DNA from: a virus
Lineage: Duplodnaviria > Heunggongvirae > Uroviricota > Caudoviricetes
Strand: one strand, 5' to 3'
Virus record (IMG/VR): IMGVR_UViG_3300032046_000003
Location: 128,001-178,280 of that record
Length of the DNA: 50,280 bases
This document shows positions 5,614 to 34,334 of the stretch, one piece after another (the first letter of the stretch is position 1; each line of letters begins with the position of its first letter). Under the pieces are notes generated by a model, which did no database searches, was not told where the DNA came from, and saw nothing but the letters and a program-made list of their open reading frames with translations. The position numbers and the translations under genes are program-made.

Positions 5614-6821
5614 ACATATTATACATATTACAACAATCAATATATAATAAAAATAAGAAATGGATAAGCAGTGACAGTAATATACAAATGATGAGAGGCA
5701 TCCTGAGCGAATTGATTGAAAAGACAGATTGGAATTTTTATGTATTAATTGCTGAATTAGAGAATTTTGCAGATATTAAAGATTATAAAGAAATTTTTGA
5801 CAATGAAAGAGTTCATTTTATTCCCTATAAATTTCCAGTAGATGCCTTTTTACTTAGACAACACTTCAACACAACTGAATTCGATCTATTATTTAGATAT
5901 GGATTGCCTAAAATAGATATTATATGGAACAATATAGCTGAAATTTCTAGGAACATAAAAACCTATTTAAAGTTTAATGTCAAAGACAATATTAAACTAA
6001 TAACTTGTTGTTATTGGTTGGACACTCCAATGATAAAAGGACAAAATAAAGTTGATATTGATATATCATATGATTGGAGACAATTTGATGGATTTGAGTG
6101 TTCTGATTTATGCGTGTTTACTTGTAAATCAACTTTTAATGCATTTTTAAATAATGCAAAGCTTAAATTCAATAATAAATTTATAAAGAAAATAGCTAAC
6201 AAATCTACTATATGGGATTTTGGCTATTCAATAAAAGAGTTAAATCAATATAAGGTCTCAAATGTGTTTGAAAAGCCAACTATAATGTTTTTAAATAGAT
6301 TAAGTGAAATAAATTACACAAAACATATGGAGTTTATAAAAGCAATAAATAGGCTAGCTAAAAAGAGAAGTGATTTTCAAGTAGTGTTCACTAATCCAAG
6401 CATGAAGGTCGACTTTGAAGAGTTAAATAAAAGTGTTAGCAATATATTTCTATATTCAACAAAGCCATTAAACAGAGAACAATATATAAAATTATTATGG
6501 GGTGGAGTGATTTCAGTCCATCTATATACAAAAGAACTGTATGGCGGTTGTGCATCAAGAGAAGCAATAGAGTGCAACAATATAATAGTTACTCCAAAAG
6601 TATTTGAATATAGACAAATTTTAGGAGAAAATTATCCATTCTATGTTAAGCCAGGAATAAGTGAAGAGTATAAGGACCTTGATAAGATTTTAAACAAGGC
6701 ATTAGACGGATATAAAAATTTTATTAAGAGCAATAAATTTAAACAGATATTGGAAAGAAATAGAAATAGCTCATTTGAGAAAATATCAAACAGAGTTATA
6801 AAGGATATAAAAGGTTTATGA
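5610..6821 (+). CDS. GT-B fold glycosyltransferase, probably DNA/base-modifying
   Basis: C-terminal GT-B-like features IMFLNRLS..YTKHMEFIKAI and ELYGGCASREAI; lies between dNMP kinase and TS homologue; ATGA overlap at 5610. Confidence 0.7.
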   Translation: MNILYILQQSIYNKNKKWISSDSNIQMMRGILSELIEKTDWNFYVLIAELENFADIKDYKEIFDNERVHFIPYKFPVDAFLLRQHFNTTEFDLLFRYGLPKIDIIWNNIAEISRNIKTYLKFNVKDNIKLITCCYWLDTPMIKGQNKVDIDISYDWRQFDGFECSDLCVFTCKSTFNAFLNNAKLKFNNKFIKKIANKSTIWDFGYSIKELNQYKVSNVFEKPTIMFLNRLSEINYTKHMEFIKAINRLAKKRSDFQVVFTNPSMKVDFEELNKSVSNIFLYSTKPLNREQYIKLLWGGVISVHLYTKELYGGCASREAIECNNIIVTPKVFEYRQILGENYPFYVKPGISEEYKDLDKILNKALDGYKNFIKSNKFKQILERNRNSSFEKISNRVIKDIKGL

Positions 6822-26580: not shown

Positions 26581-26817
26581 ATGACAGTTATATTATATAC
26601 TTTGCCTACTTGTGAAAAATGTAAAGGCCTAAAAAAAATAATGAAAGAAAGAAAAATAGAGTTTAAAGAGCTCGACTTGAGTAATCCAGATAATTTAGCT
26701 ATTTTAGTCATGAAAGGCGTTAATATTTCACTTGCTCCAATTTTGGAAATTGACGGTAAGTTTTACAATAATCATGAAGGAATTTTAAAACACTTAGAAG
26801 GAAAACGAAATGAATAA
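26581..26817 (+). CDS. glutaredoxin/NrdH-like redoxin
   Basis: ILYTLPTCEKC, APILEIDG; upstream of RNR. Confidence 0.85.
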   Translation: MTVILYTLPTCEKCKGLKKIMKERKIEFKELDLSNPDNLAILVMKGVNISLAPILEIDGKFYNNHEGILKHLEGKRNE

Positions 26818-26835
26818 AATATCGGAGATAAATTT

Positions 26836-27036
26836 ATGAAAAAGCAAAAAATTAAGATTAAAGATTTGCCAGAAGATTTTGATATGATCGGGTGTAAGTT
26901 AAAAGGTAAATATATTTATAGCGGTTGGAATAAAGGGTTTTGGATGAAAAAGAAGATGAGCGATACTGAAATGTTTCCTTTGTTTTTTAAAAGTTTTGAT
27001 GATATTAAGAATTGGGAGATAGAAATAATAAAATGA
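26836..27036 (+). CDS. hypothetical protein
   Basis: GGAG RBS, ATGA overlap with nrdD. Confidence 0.5.
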   Translation: MKKQKIKIKDLPEDFDMIGCKLKGKYIYSGWNKGFWMKKKMSDTEMFPLFFKSFDDIKNWEIEIIK

Positions 27037-29237
27037 CCAAGAAAAAAATTAAAGTAATAACAAAACAATCTAAAGCAGATACTACTGACAAATCACTTAA
27101 TGTAGAATCTTTTTCTACTTATGAAATGATAACTGAGTGGGATAAATCTAGAGTCGCTGATAGTCTGCAAAAAGAAGCCGGAGTGACTGAAAAATTAGCA
27201 AAAGATATAGCAAACGCGGTAGAGAACAAATTATTAAAACTCGAGATTGAAAGCATTTCAACAGAATTCATCAGGTCTTTGGTTGATGAGGAATTGCTTA
27301 TAAGGGGCGAAAAGAAAAAGCTCCAAAAACAAAAAGCATTAATTATACCCACTTATGATTTAGAGCAAGTATTGTTCGATAAAACTAATGAGAATAGTAA
27401 TGTTCAATCAAATAGTCCCGAGGCAGTAAACATGTTTATAGCCGAGTCTATATTAAAACAATATGCTCTTAACCGAGTATTTTCTACTGAGGTCGCCAAT
27501 TCACATCTGAACGGAGAAATACATCTACACGATTTAGGGTATATTGACAGGGTATACAGTCTAGACGGGTTAAATAGTACCATAGAGATTAAAAGTGGCA
27601 TAAATGGGCCATCTAGAAAAATTTGTATGAAAAATTTATATGATGTTATATGCGAAGAGGAATTATATGATCCAGAATTAGATGCACATATAAAATATCC
27701 CAAAGATTTATTTATTAGGGATAAAAATGAATGGGTGGAGCTAAAAAAAGTATTAAAACACAAAACAGATAAGAAAATTTTAAAAATAGACACAACAGAA
27801 GGGGATAGCCTATGGGTTACAGAAGATCATCCTTGCATAATTTTAGAAAATGAAATAGAGATTACAAAACAGGCAAAAGATTTAAAAGAGAACGATATAT
27901 TGTTAAAAATTATATTAATAAATGCGTCAGAAAGGTTAAAAGTGTTTATGCAACAAGTTAAAATAAAAAAAATACAAAAAGTAATTAATTCAAGCGATTT
28001 TGTTTATGACGTAACTACAAAATCAGGAACGTTTATATGCAATAACTTATTAATTCACAACTGTTCATCTCATTCATTAGAATACATAAAGAAATATGGA
28101 TTAAGTTTGCAGAATCTGTCAACAAAATCGTCACCTGCGAAATATGCTTTAACGTTAACAGGTCATTTAAATACTTTCCTAGCTTCAATGCAGGCTTTTT
28201 ATGCAGGAGCCCTAGGAATAAGCTACGTGAATATATTTTATGCTCCGTTTTTATTAGGAATGACTAAAAAAGAATTAAAGCAACAGGCTCAATACCTTAT
28301 ATTTTCATGTTCTCAAAATGCTTTTAGCAGGGGAGGGCAGACTTTATTTATAGACTTTAATATACATTTAGGAGTACCTAGCATATTAGCAGATGTTCCA
28401 ACAATAGGTCAAAATGGTAAATATATTACTGAATTAATAATCGATGGTATGGAACCATCAGAACAAAGAAGAGAAAACAAGGAATTCAGAGAATCTTTAT
28501 GGATATTGACTAAAGAAAGAGACGAATTGACGCATGAGAAAATATTACAATATTATGAGTTATTTCCGCTAGAATATGAAGGCAAGAAAATAATAGAATA
28601 CATAAGACTTAGAGCTTATCATACAAGGCAATTAACATATAAAGATTTTGAGAAAAAATCTCAAGAATTTGCTCAAGCCTTAATGGAAGTATGGCACGAG
28701 GGCGATTCTAATCACGGAGTATTCCCATTTCCTAAATTTGACCTACATGTTAATGAAGAGTGCTTTACTGATGAAACTCAAAAAAAACTAATGGAATATG
28801 CCTGCGAGTTGTCGGCAGACAAAGGAATAACATATTTCTTCTTTGATAGGTCAGAGGCTCAATTGGCGCAATGCATTTCTGGTAATTCATTGATCAAGAT
28901 TAATAATAAAAAAGTACAAATTGAAGATTTATTTGAAAAATTAAGTAAAAATGTCGAAAAAAGACAAGATGGCTCTGAAGTTATAAAAATTAAAAATATA
29001 AAAATTGATGATTTTGATATAAAAAATAACAAAAAAGAGAATGTAAATATGAATGCATTGATGAGAAAAAAATATAAAGGTAATATTATTAAAACAATGA
29101 TTAATAATAAAGAATTAATTTGTACGCCCGATCATAAATTTACTGTTAAATGTAAAAAAAATAATGAGTTAATTGAAATAACTGCAGAAAAATTATATGA
29201 AAATAAAGATTTATATTTAATCCCAATGGAGAATTAA
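27033..29237 (+). CDS. nrdD: anaerobic ribonucleoside-triphosphate reductase NrdD, N-terminal fragment (ATP cone, cis intein, ends in N-intein)
   Basis: ATP cone, GEIHLHDL, SRGGQTLF, FPFPK; ends AQ|CISGNS...CTPDH. Confidence 0.9.
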   Translation: MTKKKIKVITKQSKADTTDKSLNVESFSTYEMITEWDKSRVADSLQKEAGVTEKLAKDIANAVENKLLKLEIESISTEFIRSLVDEELLIRGEKKKLQKQKALIIPTYDLEQVLFDKTNENSNVQSNSPEAVNMFIAESILKQYALNRVFSTEVANSHLNGEIHLHDLGYIDRVYSLDGLNSTIEIKSGINGPSRKICMKNLYDVICEEELYDPELDAHIKYPKDLFIRDKNEWVELKKVLKHKTDKKILKIDTTEGDSLWVTEDHPCIILENEIEITKQAKDLKENDILLKIILINASERLKVFMQQVKIKKIQKVINSSDFVYDVTTKSGTFICNNLLIHNCSSHSLEYIKKYGLSLQNLSTKSSPAKYALTLTGHLNTFLASMQAFYAGALGISYVNIFYAPFLLGMTKKELKQQAQYLIFSCSQNAFSRGGQTLFIDFNIHLGVPSILADVPTIGQNGKYITELIIDGMEPSEQRRENKEFRESLWILTKERDELTHEKILQYYELFPLEYEGKKIIEYIRLRAYHTRQLTYKDFEKKSQEFAQALMEVWHEGDSNHGVFPFPKFDLHVNEECFTDETQKKLMEYACELSADKGITYFFFDRSEAQLAQCISGNSLIKINNKKVQIEDLFEKLSKNVEKRQDGSEVIKIKNIKIDDFDIKNNKKENVNMNALMRKKYKGNIIKTMINNKELICTPDHKFTVKCKKNNELIEITAEKLYENKDLYLIPMEN
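27558..28061 (+). mobile_element. cis mini-intein (168 aa) in NrdD
   Basis: Starts SLDG after RVY, block B VTEDHP, ends VYDVTT...IHN followed by Cys; no endonuclease domain. Confidence 0.85.
28872..29237 (+). mobile_element. split intein N-half (NrdD)
   Basis: CISGNSLI...LICTPDHKF then stop. Confidence 0.85.
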
Positions 29238-29242
29238 TAAAA

Positions 29243-30214
29243 ATGTGTAAAAATATGATTAAAAATAAAAAAGGTAGACCTAAAATAGAAAGACAGTTTA
29301 AAACATGTAAATGTGGTAAAAATTTCGAATGTAGGATAACAGAAAATAGGAAATATTGTTCATTAATATGTTGGTATAAATTTGGCGATAAAACTAAAGA
29401 AAATAATCCAGCATGGAAAGAAAGGGAAACTCACTATTGTCAATGTGGTTGTAATGAAATATTTGAAACAATAATAACATCTAAAAGAAGATTTATTAAT
29501 GGTCATCAAATGAGAGGCATAAAGCGTAGCGATGTAACAAGAGCAAAATTAAGGGAAGCGGCTAAAGGAAGATTTACTTTAAAATGGTATATAGAAAGAT
29601 ATGGAGAAAATGAAGGTGAAAGGAAATACATAGAACGCAATAAAAAGACAGTTTCTAACAATTTAGAGGCATTAACAGTTAAATATGGGAAAGTTGTTGC
29701 TAAAGAAAAATTTGATAATTATCTCAAAAAATGGAAAAGACAATACATTGAAGAATTTTGGATTGAAAAATTTGGCGAAAAGATTGGTAAAGAAAAATAT
29801 ATTAAGAGAATGAATAAGCTTTTTCCCAATTGTTCATCAAAGATCTCTCAAGAATTATTTTTTAAATTATACAATAAATTAAATTTATCTAAATACAAAT
29901 ATGTTTATTTTGACAAATTAAATCATGAATTCTCATGTGGAACTAGATATAATTTTGATTTCGTAATAAATGATATTAAAAAGATAATTGAATTTAACGG
30001 TGATAAATTTCATGCTAATCCTTCTATTTATAAAGCTGAAGACGTTTCTAATCCATTTGAAAAATTAACAGCTAAAGAAATTTGGGAAAATGATAGTATC
30101 AAAATAAATAAAGTTTTAAATAAGGGATATAAAGTACTTGTTATTTGGGAAAGTGATTATTATAAAAATAAAGAAAAAACTTTTAAAAAATGTAAAGAAT
30201 TTTTAGAGGAGTAA
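29243..30214 (+). mobile_element. free-standing Vsr/DUF559-like homing endonuclease between the NrdD split-intein halves
   Basis: CxCG and CSLIC Zn motifs, FDFV...IIEFNGDKFH, GYKVLVIWE. Confidence 0.85.
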
Positions 30215-30218
30215 AAAA

Positions 30219-31175
30219 ATGAAATTTCGTGAAATAGATGATATAAAAATAGAAAAATATGATGGATATGTTTATGATTTAGAAACAGAAAAATATAATC
30301 ATTATGCTGCAAATGATTTTATAATACATAATTGCTGTCGTCTTCGAGAAACTATAACAGATATGACTATGGTTAAAAATCCTGAAAGTTTGAGATTTTG
30401 TGGGTTCCAAAACGTGACTATTAATCTTCCGCAAGCTGCTTATAGGGGTAAGGGTGATTTTAATAAAACTGTAGATGAAATAATCTGGGCAATGAAAATA
30501 GCTATGAAAGCCCATCTGCAGAAAAAGAAGTTTATACAAAGTTTAATGGACGATGAAAATAAACCTCTTTGGCAAGTAGGAAAACCATCTGAAGACGGAA
30601 AACCATATATCGACTTAGAAAAGTCAACATATATTATAGGAATGCTAGGATTAAATGAGTGCGTTCAAAGAATAATGGGAAAACAGTTGCATGAATCGGA
30701 TGATGCGTTGAATATGGGTATAAAAATAGTCGCTCATATGTATTCCGAATGTAAAGAATTTGCCAAAGAATATAAATTAAAAGTCGTATTAGAAGAATCT
30801 CCTGCAGAAAGTGCGGCAGCTAGATTGGCTAAAATAGACTTGAATAAATTTCCAGAGGCTAAAAAGTATATTAAAGGCAATAAAGATAACGGAGATGTAT
30901 ATTATACGAATTCTACTCATTTTACCGCAGATGCAGATATTGATATATTAGACAGGATAGACAAACAATCTAAATTCAATCAACTTATAGAGGCAGGAGC
31001 CATAACGCATGTTTTCTTAGGAGAGCAAAGGCCCACAAAAGAAGCAGTATTTAATTTGGTAGAAAAGACATGGAGAAATACTCAATCAGCTCAATTAACG
31101 TTAAGTCCTGAATTGATAATATGTCATGATTGCGGAAGGGTGACCAGAGGCTTTTCTCAAGTTGAAGATGAATAG
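30219..31175 (+). CDS. nrdD: NrdD middle fragment, beginning with 38-aa C-intein
   Basis: VYDLET...IIHN|CCRL, VTINLPQ, IGMLGLNE, EESPAES, YYTNS; ends with only CHDC, no glycyl-radical motif. Confidence 0.9.
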   Translation: MKFREIDDIKIEKYDGYVYDLETEKYNHYAANDFIIHNCCRLRETITDMTMVKNPESLRFCGFQNVTINLPQAAYRGKGDFNKTVDEIIWAMKIAMKAHLQKKKFIQSLMDDENKPLWQVGKPSEDGKPYIDLEKSTYIIGMLGLNECVQRIMGKQLHESDDALNMGIKIVAHMYSECKEFAKEYKLKVVLEESPAESAAARLAKIDLNKFPEAKKYIKGNKDNGDVYYTNSTHFTADADIDILDRIDKQSKFNQLIEAGAITHVFLGEQRPTKEAVFNLVEKTWRNTQSAQLTLSPELIICHDCGRVTRGFSQVEDE

Positions 31176-31204
31176 TTTAATTTTTATAATAAATGTATTA
31201 TAAT
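31175..31204 (+). promoter_or_regulatory. phage promoter, motif A
   Basis: GTTTAA-13 nt-TGTATTATAAT directly upstream of tRNA. Confidence 0.65.
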
Positions 31205-31212
31205 AAATATCT

Positions 31213-31283
31213 GGCGTCATCGGCTAACGGTAGGCCAGCGGGCCTTCAACTCGCTAACAAGGGTTCGACTCCCTTTGGCGCCA
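31213..31283 (+). tRNA. tRNA-Glu(TTC), atypical C33
   Basis: GGCGTCA/TGGCGCC acceptor, GCGGG-CCTTCAA-CTCGC anticodon arm, AAGGG-TTCGACT-CCCTT T arm. Confidence 0.8.
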
Positions 31284-31306
31284 TAATTAAATTATAAGGA
31301 GATAAC

Positions 31307-31600
31307 ATGAATTGGTTAGAAAAAATGGATAAATTGCCAGAAAAAATTACTGATATATTTTCTAATAAATGTCCTAAATGTCATAAGAAAATATATAATT
31401 GGACAAAAACATATAGATTGTATTTTTTTAGAGTTAAAGGTAAATGGTTTGGTACTTATAGGAATCAAGAAACTATAGACAATGTAGTTTATTATCAAGA
31501 TAAGAATTTTGAAAAATTAATAGAAAAACTTTATAGGTGGACAAGGAAGTATAAAAATTGGATAAGGGCTGGAGAGGAATACGAAAAAAAAGGAGGTTGA
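31307..31600 (+). CDS. hypothetical protein (CxxC)
   Basis: AAGGAG RBS; CPKC. Confidence 0.55.
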   Translation: MNWLEKMDKLPEKITDIFSNKCPKCHKKIYNWTKTYRLYFFRVKGKWFGTYRNQETIDNVVYYQDKNFEKLIEKLYRWTRKYKNWIRAGEEYEKKGG

Positions 31601-31603
31601 AAA

Positions 31604-31762
31604 ATGGACAAAAAGAAAAAAGTAATCTGTTGCAAAGAATGCGGCTCAGAAAATGTTGATTTATTGACGCGCATAGTTGGATATTTTAGTTCTATCAAAG
31701 TTTGGAATAAATCTAAAAAACAAGAACTGAAAGCCCGTCAGAAAGGAAAGTATAAATTATGA
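31604..31762 (+). CDS. nrdD: NrdD C-terminal glycyl-radical domain as a separate 52-aa protein, not in ORF track
   Basis: AAGGAGG RBS; MDKKKKVICCKECGSENVDLLTRIVGYFSSIKVWNKSKKQELKARQ = CxxC plus RxxGY plus WNxxKxxE signature. Confidence 0.85.
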   Translation: MDKKKKVICCKECGSENVDLLTRIVGYFSSIKVWNKSKKQELKARQKGKYKL

Positions 31763-32328
31763 TTTTAGAAAAAGAAGTCAATCTTATTCAAGATATAGAG
31801 ATAAAAGAAAATACTCGTAGGCTGGTAGACAAATACGAGGAGAAAATAAAAACTCAACCAACAAGTTTAAGCGGAAAATATCACAGAAGTGATCCTGTTG
31901 TTGAACTTCATTTACGCAGAACGACCTGGTTCGCGAATGAATTGTGTAGAGAATTTAATGTTATAGGCATAGAGAGAGATAGCATTATTTCTGCATCGAT
32001 ACTTCATGATGTGGGCAATTACGAATTTTCTCACAAAGGCAATGTAGAAAAGTGTGCCAATTATTACCCAGCAACGGGATGGTGCAGAATGTTTCCTCTT
32101 GATCAGCATCCTTTAGAGGGCAAAAAGATAATTGACGAAAAGTCATTTAAAAAGTCAGAAGAGATAGGCAGAATGGTAGCTAGTCACATGAGTCATTGGC
32201 ACAAAAATTGCCCTCAGCCCACTAAACTAGATGAATATATAGTTTGTATTGCTGATTATTTTGCTTCAAAAGAAGAAGTTTCGGTTGAAGGAATTAATTT
32301 AAGTCAGGCTAAAGAAATAGCGAAATAA
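31759..32328 (+). CDS. HD-domain phosphohydrolase
   Basis: H...ILHDVG...H...SHM...IADY. Confidence 0.8.
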   Translation: MILEKEVNLIQDIEIKENTRRLVDKYEEKIKTQPTSLSGKYHRSDPVVELHLRRTTWFANELCREFNVIGIERDSIISASILHDVGNYEFSHKGNVEKCANYYPATGWCRMFPLDQHPLEGKKIIDEKSFKKSEEIGRMVASHMSHWHKNCPQPTKLDEYIVCIADYFASKEEVSVEGINLSQAKEIAK

Positions 32329-32514: not shown

Positions 32515-32874
32515 ATGGATATAAGAGGCTGGCATAAAGTGAGCTTACTGGATTATCCAGACAAGGTAAGCACATTAATTTTCACTTATGGATGCAATAG
32601 AAGGTGTCCATATTGTGTGTCAAACGACACTAAAATAACTTTAAAAAATGGTAAAACAAAAAGAGCCGATTTAATTAATGTGGGAGATATTTTAAAAACA
32701 CCTTTCGGAAAAACCAAAGTTACGACTTATATAGAAGACATAAAAGAACTTTATGAGATTAAATTTAAAGGTGGTAAAAAAATTAAAGTAGGCAAAAATC
32801 ATTTATTTATGAGTGAAAAGAATTTAAAAAAAGTAAAGAATTTAAAAATAGGGGATATAATTTATGGTGTGTAA
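32515..32874 (+). CDS. nrdG: NrdG activase N-terminal fragment plus split intein N-half
   Basis: SLLDYPDK...GCNRRCPY|CVSNDT...NHLF...LKIGD. Confidence 0.85.
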   Translation: MDIRGWHKVSLLDYPDKVSTLIFTYGCNRRCPYCVSNDTKITLKNGKTKRADLINVGDILKTPFGKTKVTTYIEDIKELYEIKFKGGKKIKVGKNHLFMSEKNLKKVKNLKIGDIIYGV

Positions 32875-33652
32875 TTTAAATAATAGCTTAAGAATGAAAT
32901 TAAACAATCCAATGAAAAATAAATTAATTGTTAAAAAAGTTATGAACACTAAAAAAATAAATCATGTTTATGAAAAAATGGCTAAGAATGCCATAGGAAA
33001 AAAAATGTTAAAAGAATCAATTTTAAAAAGACAGAAAACTTATTATAAGAACAATCAGCATATTAAATCTTCTAATAGAATGAAGATTAATAATCCAATG
33101 TTCAGAGTTAATATTAAACAAAAGATGAAAAATACATTTAAAAATAAAACTTTCAAAGAAAGAGAAATTATTAATAATAAGATTTTAGAAACCAAAAATA
33201 AAACTGGATGCTATAAAAATATGTCCAAAAATATGAAAAAAAATAATCCTATGTTTAATGAAAATACAGTTAAAAAGATGGTCAAAACTATGTATGAGCT
33301 TTGGCCAAATAAAAAAAGTGGATTAGAAAAAAAATATGAGAAAATATTTTATATATTAGATAAAAAAATTGAATTTGTAGGTAATGGTTCAGTTTGGATT
33401 AAAAGACAAAACCCTGATTTTATATTGAGAAGTAAAAAGAAAGTTATTGAAATGACTTCACATTGGTTTTATAGAACTAAAAATAATTATGCCATTAATA
33501 GAATAAAAAAATATAATGAATGTAATTGGAATTGTCTAGTCATTTTCATAGATAAGGATAAATTTAATGATAGCTTAAGATTACAAATACTAGATTATTT
33601 AAAACATGATTATTCAGGGGTAATAGAATATGGCAAACTTGAAAAAATATAA
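32864..33652 (+). mobile_element. free-standing homing endonuclease between the NrdG split-intein halves
   Basis: NNPM repeats, NPDF...KVIEM..HW, WNCLVI. Confidence 0.8.
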
Positions 33653-34334
33653 AATTTTGAGTATAAAAAAAATAGGATATGACAAAGTTATAGATTTTTC
33701 ATGTGAACCAATACCATATTATATATCTAATAATATGATTTCGCATAATTGTCATAATCCAAAATTAGTCTTAGTGAGAAACAAATGGAAATTGACTGAA
33801 AGAATAAAAGAAGACAAAATCATAAATTTCATTAAGAGTAAAAACAAGACTAAAAAATGGGTGGATGCTATTTCCATATGTGGCGGTGAGCCTACGACCC
33901 AATGGAGTTTGATCAAGTTCTGCGAGAAGATAAAAAAAGAATTAGGAATACTTATTAAGGTTGATACAAATGGAACTAACCCCAGAATGCTCAGAAAATT
34001 AATAAGTAGGAAATTGGTTGATTACGTGGCAATGGATGTTAAAGTGGATTTATTCAATAGGCGGAACTATAATCTCAGCATCAAGCTAGTAAAGAAGATG
34101 AAAAATTATGAATTTCGTTTGACAGCGGTTCCAACATTGGTTAAAGACGACAATATAGAACAAATAGCAGAAAAGTTCAAAGGAGCCAAGAGGTTCTATA
34201 TTCAGCAGTTCAACAACAAGGTTAATATGCTGAATAACAAATATAAGGATATAAAGCCTTATAAGCGGGCGACATTGGAAGAATGGTGCAAGAAAATCAA
34301 GAAAAATTTTGATAGATGCGAGGTGCGCGCGTAA
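33630..34334 (+). CDS. nrdG: split intein C-half (40 aa) plus NrdG C-terminal fragment
   Basis: VIDFSC...ISHN|CHNP, ICGGEPT, KVDTNG, DYVAMDVK, YEFRLTAVP. Confidence 0.88.
   Translation: MANLKKYKILSIKKIGYDKVIDFSCEPIPYYISNNMISHNCHNPKLVLVRNKWKLTERIKEDKIINFIKSKNKTKKWVDAISICGGEPTTQWSLIKFCEKIKKELGILIKVDTNGTNPRMLRKLISRKLVDYVAMDVKVDLFNRRNYNLSIKLVKKMKNYEFRLTAVPTLVKDDNIEQIAEKFKGAKRFYIQQFNNKVNMLNNKYKDIKPYKRATLEEWCKKIKKNFDRCEVRA

Follow-up and report, generated by a model that had tools for sequence, protein, structure and literature searches.

The class III ribonucleotide reductase (RNR) NrdD and its activase NrdG are encoded in many pieces, between positions 27012 and 34334, in the DNA analyzed here, a stretch of 50,280 nucleotides (the window) that makes up the final 50 kb of a virus record of 178,280 bp, which is complete and has direct terminal repeats (IMG/VR record IMGVR_UViG_3300032046_000003, Caudoviricetes). 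Positions are those of the window, and all the features described below lie on its plus strand. We conclude that this phage very probably encodes an obligate two-chain class III RNR with a structural zinc site bridging the chains: the large chain stops between the two CxxC pairs of the metal site, and the second pair, together with the loop of the predicted radical glycine, is encoded by a separate small gene. To our knowledge, the radical glycine is located on the catalytic chain in every characterized glycyl radical enzyme, all the motifs are located on one polypeptide in every characterized NrdD, and detached radical modules are known only as GrcA and Y06I, the spare parts of pyruvate formate-lyase (PFL). 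Split phage RNR genes are known from introns, inteins, and the nrdA pair of Aeromonas phage Aeh1 (PMC3653736), but we did not find a two-chain class III RNR described. A literature search likewise returned no description of an NrdD radical domain as a separate gene, although subscription journals were largely beyond its reach and this absence is not proof.

Two chains of the phage NrdD

The large chain ends with ICHDCGRVTRGFSQVEDE, followed by a TAG stop codon at positions 31173 to 31175. The preliminary description of this DNA had located the stop directly after CHDC, the first CxxC of the metal site (31122 to 31133). The stop does separate the two CxxC pairs, but it is found 13 residues past CHDC. 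That description was accurate for the small chain, since the second CxxC (CKEC, 31631 to 31642; residues C10 and C13), the radical motif R23-I-V-G26-Y (Gly26 at 31679 to 31681), and the WNKSKKQE tail are all encoded by the open reading frame (ORF) 31604 to 31762, whose ATG is preceded, at a distance of 7 nt, by the Shine-Dalgarno sequence AAGGAGG (31590 to 31596). The four-Cys site is therefore divided two and two between the large chain and the 52-residue peptide and, as judged from the alignments, the chain is cut within the zinc ribbon, one CxxC knuckle lying on either side. A search of the whole genome identified a single set of NrdD pieces, with one peptide gene and no large chain carrying a tip of its own.

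Profile searches assigned both chains to NrdD. The four NrdD pieces cover the Pfam NRDD family (PF13597) contiguously, with matches to profile positions 1 to 52, 53 to 251, 239 to 518, and 522 to 561 of 562, the last of these being due to the peptide (E value of 4.4e-11). TIGR02487 is matched at positions 264 to 537 by the large chain and 541 to 580 by the small chain, of a total of 581. The whole-length profile, the CCRL loop, the four-Cys site, the RxxGY motif, and the adjacent nrdG gene are all those of a class III RNR. The enzyme is not a single polypeptide, as indicated by the stop codon, the separate start at 31604, the change of frame, and the presence of a tRNA gene and of an ORF between the two coding sequences. 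Alignments revealed that residues C1, C2, R3, and L4 of the third extein, which form the CCRL cysteine loop, are invariant in 48 sequences, as are C264 and C267 of the CHDC motif in 48 large chains. In the alignment of the peptide (n = 42), C10, C13, R23, G26, W34, K38, E41, and R45 are invariant and Y27 is nearly so, for a mean column identity of 28%.

The correspondence between the two chains and a one-chain enzyme was established with a fused relative, L014 (62% identity), which was used as the comparator in place of sequences from the Protein Data Bank (PDB), as the alignment obtained in a PDB search (phmmer with the tail of the large chain) stopped short of the first CxxC. Residues 20 to 276 of the large chain align to residues 1 to 258 of L014 (ending CEDCNRSTRGLHE) and residues 10 to 50 of the peptide align to residues 260 to 300 (starting CTICGSQHVYGITRIVGYYS), so that L014 is tiled by the two chains with neither gap nor overlap. 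The peptide also aligns to residues 698 to 735 of the Prevotella copri enzyme (8P23).

A complex prediction including zinc, which had been proposed as a check in the preliminary description, was carried out with controls. The second and third exteins of the large chain, the peptide (alignments of 42 to 48 relatives for each chain), and one zinc ion were modeled together, leading to a score of 0.86, versus 0.01 for the best of three controls. In the calibration set, that mark was attained by 58 of the 80 solved complexes and by 2 of the 110 mismatched pairs, these figures being rough for custom alignments and for a ligand. Three model runs displayed at least 91% contact agreement, with a partner pLDDT (predicted local distance difference test) of at least 81. 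In the model, residues 258 to 267 of the large chain (SPELIICHDC) pair with residues 17 to 23 of the peptide, C264 of the large chain contacts C10 of the peptide, and the two cysteines of the CCRL loop also contact the peptide, in an extensive buried interface comprising about 170 contacts and the shared zinc site. The model suggests a fit of the two pieces to the canonical architecture of NrdD, which is distinct from binding.

Based on these data, we propose that the large chain would mature from ORFs 27012 to 29237 and 30219 to 31175 through two protein-splicing steps, one in cis and one in trans, and would contribute the barrel, the catalytic cysteine loop (CCRL), and one half of the metal site, its first CxxC. 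The regular second subunit would be the 52-residue protein encoded at 31604 to 31762, translated independently from its own ribosome-binding site and providing the second CxxC, the Gly26 loop, and a tail wrapping around the surface. The two chains would dock noncovalently by the pairing of a strand of the peptide with the SPELIIC strand of the large chain, the four cysteines closing one zinc site across the interface. NrdG, itself spliced, would then place the radical on Gly26, adjacent to the CCRL cysteine. Noncovalent assembly of two chains by an interchain zinc clasp had been put forward in the preliminary description. The separate chain, the two-and-two division of the cysteines, the conserved position of the break (see below), and the controlled fit of the model are in agreement with this proposal, whereas the clasp itself should be regarded as probable from homology and the model. 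What the analysis establishes directly is the gene structure, its conservation, and the lack of any joining element; the docking of the chains and the activity of a two-chain enzyme are inferred.

Conservation of the break in bacteria, archaea, and phages

Relatives of the peptide were sought exhaustively by phmmer among 1.84 billion cluster representatives (E value of ≤1e-3), which led to 228 matches. Most of the best 150 of these 228 matches are stand-alone ORFs of 48 to 130 residues. Of the 150, 114 comprise 130 residues or fewer, and 79 of these 114 short proteins have an initial Met and, ahead of an RVVGY motif, the second CxxC alone. Three other searches were less productive: a word-indexed protein search with the peptide at near lengths returned one close relative only, blastn with positions 30219 to 32328 and tblastn with the peptide gave nothing in the GenBank phage collection, and a scan of IMG/VR with the middle piece of NrdD detected no relatives. 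Some of the stand-alone peptides (P0011 and P0027) have additional CxxC pairs farther upstream, such as CANC…CPDC ahead of RVVGY, and the whole zinc ribbon may be located on the small chain in some lineages.

The large nrdD gene of the relatives stops a few residues past the first CxxC (…ISPEFTxCxDCxxVSxGYxR-stop), and the small gene comes next. Split large chains originate from cellular operons, both of bacteria and of DPANN archaea, and from phage contigs, the two-gene layout being shared by many uncultured bacteria, archaea, and phages. The small gene of the cellular operons is equipped with a start codon and a ribosome-binding site of its own. Genes are found in the order ftsA-ftsZ-nrdR-nrdD-small gene-thioredoxin-like gene-nrdG in L010/L011 and L013. 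In metagenome-assembled genomes of DPANN archaea (L007 to L009), the small gene is located 47 nt 3′ of the large gene or overlaps it, and in L006 a gene encoding a 61-residue ferredoxin (5731 to 5916 of that contig) is located between the genes for the two chains. In related phage contigs, the distance between the two genes amounts to 3 nt in L016 and to 3.9 kb in L015, where five genes separate the large gene from a small gene of 49 codons located directly before nrdG. Thus, the small gene is an independent gene that is free to change position. The genes intervening in L015 (7179 to 11250) include an SbcCD-like pair, consisting of a 350-codon ORF and a gene for a 683-residue SMC_N/AAA_23 protein. 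A small thioredoxin-like gene is present between the peptide gene and nrdG in the cellular split operons (downstream regions of L006, L007, L010, and L013); its product and the ferredoxin of L006 may serve as reductant partners for NrdD enzymes of this subtype.

A search for fused relatives, also suggested at the outset, revealed that 79 to 80 of the 120 nearest homologues of the third extein (56 to 72% identity) end at the same point as the phage chain and that 41 to 42 are fused. An unrooted FastTree phylogeny of 122 relatives, based on the core of the large chain with the tail left out, requires at least seven changes between the split and the fused states, at least three of which are forced by well-supported branches, in comparison to an average of 35 after shuffling of the labels. 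The window falls within a clade of ten (99% support), all of which are split, and the members of this clade are found on phage-like contigs where, as in the window, the locus begins with glutaredoxin and nrdD. The phylogeny and the shared break point indicate that the split of the phage gene is inherited from an old and widespread two-gene nrdD lineage.

The closest relative, L005, is an independent metagenome contig of 1.66 kb encoding a middle piece of NrdD that is 98% identical at the amino acid level. It shares with the window the stop codon of the large chain, a tRNA-Glu gene at the same place, and the small ORF, with a GTG start behind GGGAGG. The assembly error envisaged in the preliminary description was accordingly not borne out. 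The spacer of L005 is only 108 nt long and is nearly all tRNA. Comparison of the middle pieces revealed 19 synonymous and 6 nonsynonymous codon differences. The first 296 codons contain 10 synonymous and no nonsynonymous differences and the last 22 codons, which belong to a recombined patch, contain 9 and 6, respectively. The recombined tail retains all the residues conserved in the family (P, E, L, both Cys, G, R, R, G, and F).

Alternative readings and known systems

Several points weigh against an obligate two-chain enzyme. The production of the peptide, the binding of zinc, and the formation of the radical are predictions from sequence and model. The performance of the complex model may reflect recall of the solved single-chain NrdD structures (T4, Thermotoga maritima, and P. 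copri). L005, which is 98% identical, is the sole very close relative, and the within-clade selection statistics rest on few changes. Finally, the tRNA-Glu with an unusual anticodon loop (C33) and the recombination patch in the spacer could disturb expression of the region.

The most serious competitor, which was raised in the preliminary description and which we nonetheless regard as unlikely, is that the peptide is a renewable spare part, as GrcA/YfiD is for PFL, a peptide cleaved by oxygen being swapped for a new one or the free peptide being preactivated by NrdG. In glycyl radical enzymes, cleavage by oxygen takes place at the radical glycine, and this oxygen-labile residue would here sit on the small chain. 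The independent mobility of the small gene, which adjoins nrdG in L015, is compatible with a spare part, and the seven or more changes of state among the 122 relatives suggest that the split is easily tolerated or favored. Spare parts have been validated for PFL only but are possible for other glycyl radical enzymes, and reviews leave open whether such enzymes have them (PMC8683613; PMC13450708). Against a spare part, the genome contains a single copy of the peptide gene and encodes no full-length NrdD to be rescued, indicating that the peptide is a regular subunit. The peptide matches the NRDD family only (all the NCBIfam hits are NrdD models) and is not a relative of GrcA, and the large modeled interface with its shared zinc site would suggest a tight rather than an exchangeable complex. 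By analogy with PFL, it is conceivable, if improbable, that the peptide acts as an exchangeable radical cofactor, NrdG charging the free or loosely bound peptide and a fresh copy replacing the cleaved one while the 80-kDa chain is kept. Were this the case, a repair principle so far shown only for PFL would extend to class III RNRs and could help to explain the preference for the split form among phages and ultra-small microbes of oxic-anoxic interfaces.

A second possibility, which we consider very improbable, is that the phage nrdD is a decaying gene broken by mobile elements and that the 52-codon ORF is a nonfunctional leftover. The five interruptions of nrdD and nrdG within 7 kb, the recombination patch in the spacer, and the C33 of the tRNA could be taken as signs of decay. 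However, every piece keeps its catalytic and structural motifs intact, the splice-junction residues of the inteins are retained, and the changes relative to L005 are mostly synonymous. The break point is the same as in many cellular operons, and the small ORF combines a strong ribosome-binding site with translational coupling to the next gene.

The third possibility is that a group I intron, trans-splicing, ribosomal bypass, or an undetected intein joins the pieces into a single-chain NrdD, as could be expected from phage nrdD genes that contain group I introns and inteins (PMC3653736) and from the two inteins present elsewhere in this same nrdD. A group I intron was rejected, as the search of Rfam (E value of ≤10; positions 30900 to 31900) detected neither an intron nor a riboswitch, the only match being the tRNA, and as the spacer of L005 leaves little more than room for that tRNA. 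A split intein was also rejected, since the intein matches of Pfam and TIGRFAM are confined to the other two breaks of nrdD and to nrdG, and no Hint-fold N-half or C-half or other intein block flanks the CHDC/CKEC break, in agreement with the preliminary description; 13 residues are available after CHDC and 9 before CKEC. Assembly error is unlikely, as are RNA splicing, protein splicing, and read-through, given that L005 displays the same organization, that no intron or intein is present, and that the coding sequences of the two chains differ in frame and are separated by a tRNA gene and a further ORF; together with the five genes separating the two pieces in L015 and the proper start and ribosome-binding site of the cellular small genes, this leaves joining of the chains hardly tenable.

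The obligate two-chain enzyme can be compared with several known systems. Single-chain NrdD and NrdG proteins (phage T4; T. maritima, 4COI/4U3E; P. copri, 8P23) display the same whole-length profile and the same CCRL loop, with the activase nearby. They also have the same four-Cys zinc site directly before the buried glycine loop and the C-terminal tail, as described for residues 676 to 739 of the P. copri enzyme (PMC11226230). In contrast, the phage enzyme and about two-thirds of its nearest relatives are cut between the CxxC knuckles, so that the radical glycine and half of the zinc ligands are on a separate chain of 5 to 6 kDa. GrcA/YfiD of E. coli and Y06I of phage T4 likewise consist of a small stand-alone glycyl-radical loop that docks into a large chain lacking a functional tip and, like them, the peptide is presumably activated by the activase of the enzyme. 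GrcA is a PFL-type domain and a repair part encoded beside a full-length PFL, whereas the phage peptide is of the NrdD type, carries half of a zinc site, and is the sole radical loop encoded in the genome, in keeping with an obligate subunit rather than a spare. The peptide has no PFL-type Gly_radical homology, and the phage encodes no complete enzyme with its own radical domain.

In the class Ia RNR of Aeromonas phage Aeh1, the catalytic subunit is likewise encoded by separate ORFs with foreign DNA between them. There, nrdA-a and nrdA-b are split by the mobE endonuclease gene, and the enzyme is active noncovalently, without splicing (Friedrich et al. 2007, cited in PMC3653736). The Aeh1 break is recent and lineage specific, and it was caused by the insertion of the endonuclease gene. 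In contrast, the break described here is old, is shared with cellular organisms, affects a class III enzyme, and detaches the radical site, the insert being secondary. The so-called fractured genes, in which a free-standing endonuclease gene is located between the halves of a split intein (Dassa et al. 2009, as cited in PMC3653736), have the same layout as the nrdD break at 28872 to 30332 and the nrdG break. Unlike these, the CHDC/CKEC break has no intein halves, and the chains remain separate.

A two-chain class III RNR present in bacteria, archaea, and phages would offer a natural system for investigating the recognition of the radical domain by the activase and would allow one to ask whether this domain must leave the barrel for activation. 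It would also make exchange of the radical tip after oxygen damage directly testable. With respect to annotation, split large chains have the appearance of truncated proteins, and most of the small genes either have received no name or have been overlooked; anaerobic deoxynucleoside triphosphate synthesis is therefore under-called in phages and in genomes of the candidate phyla radiation (CPR)/DPANN type.

The spacer and the neighboring genes

The preliminary description had listed a promoter, a tRNA-Glu gene, and a 97-codon ORF between the two pieces. The tRNA-Glu (UUC) gene (31212 to 31284) was identified both by ARAGORN and by Rfam (RF00005; 56.8 bits), and the ORF (31307 to 31600) was also recovered. 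The promoter was not upheld, since the sigma-70-like sequence preceding the tRNA (TTGAAG-17-TATAAT, 31162 to 31190; 10 of 12 consensus positions) is a consensus match only, of a kind found 8 times in the surrounding 1 kb versus 4.2 times expected. Since the small gene is already independent and its position is free, the tRNA gene and the ORF merely occupy the spacer, and the comparison of gene orders indicates that they did not cause the split and are later arrivals between two preexisting separate genes.

The 97-codon ORF is absent from L005. It contains a single CPKC motif and has no match in Pfam, NCBIfam, or PHROG; among 5.8 billion proteins it matches itself alone. The Atlas model of its product is poor (pLDDT of 0.47). 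The possibility that it encodes a homing endonuclease or a second radical or zinc module was rejected based on this absence of a family match and on Atlas hits below the level of chance (0.82). A distance of 3 nt separates its stop codon (31598 to 31600) from the start of the peptide gene, whose ribosome-binding site lies within the last codons of the ORF.

Alignment of positions 31107 to 31603 of the window with positions 1265 to 1438 of L005 revealed a mosaic patch that is far more diverged than its flanks, which are 98.8% identical. The patch comprises the last 22 codons of the large chain, the tRNA-Glu gene (78% identity, with compensatory changes in the stems), and the spacer, and it looks like a cassette exchanged by recombination. 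Position 33 of tRNAs is near-universally U. The tRNA-Glu of the window has a C at this position (anticodon loop CCUUCAA), the L005 copy having a normal UUUUCAA loop, and the function of the window tRNA is uncertain.

Upstream of the break, a glutaredoxin-like gene encoding a CxxC redoxin-like protein (26581 to 26817) is located just 5′ of nrdD, as are PF00462 glutaredoxin genes directly preceding nrdD in the related contigs L015 to L018. The first NrdD extein (27012 to 27557; Pfam NRDD positions 1 to 52), whose boundary was set by comparison with intein-free homologues, corresponds to the N-terminal region and shows a weak match to the ATP-cone. It is followed by a contiguous mini-intein of the S...HN|C type (27558 to 28061; PF14890 Intein_splicing, E value of 3.4e-13), the junction without the intein, RVY|CS.HS, being observed in the intein-free L013. 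The second extein (28062 to 28871; Pfam NRDD positions 53 to 251) forms the first half of the barrel. Next comes the N-half of a split intein (28872 to 29237), which starts with CISGNS, where the sequence departs from the ...LSACCRL of the homologues, contains a second Intein_splicing stretch, and ends at a stop codon. Its C-half (30219 to 30332; PF14890 positions 120 to 155, TIGR01443 intein_Cterm) ends with IIHN before CCRL, and the third extein (30333 to 31175; Pfam NRDD positions 244 to 518) contains the CCRL loop and the second half of the barrel. The split intein is thus located at the catalytic CCRL loop, and a free-standing endonuclease-like ORF of 323 codons (29243 to 30214; phrog_22677, E value of 2.4e-32) lies between its halves, with weak matches to endonuclease phrog_13076 and PF18741 REase.

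Downstream, the gene for an HD-domain protein (31759 to 32328; PF01966, phrog_5889) is translationally coupled to the radical-peptide gene by an ATGA overlap, and this coupling is retained in L005. The nrdG gene is fractured too. Its first piece (32515 to 32874; Pfam Radical_SAM, Hint, and Intein_splicing) encodes the radical-SAM sequence CNRRCPY followed by the N-half of a split intein, and a 262-codon ORF with no family match (32864 to 33652) is located between this piece and the next. In the second piece (33630 to 34334; PF04055, E value of 7.1e-11, and PF13353), the C-half of the intein ends with ISHN before CHNP and is followed by the rest of the radical-SAM domain, the intein thereby interrupting the CX3CX2C motif itself. 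For comparison, no interrupted copy of nrdG was reported by Dwivedi et al. (2013) in 128 phage genomes (PMC3653736). Assembly of the complete system in this phage requires three translation products of nrdD and two of nrdG.

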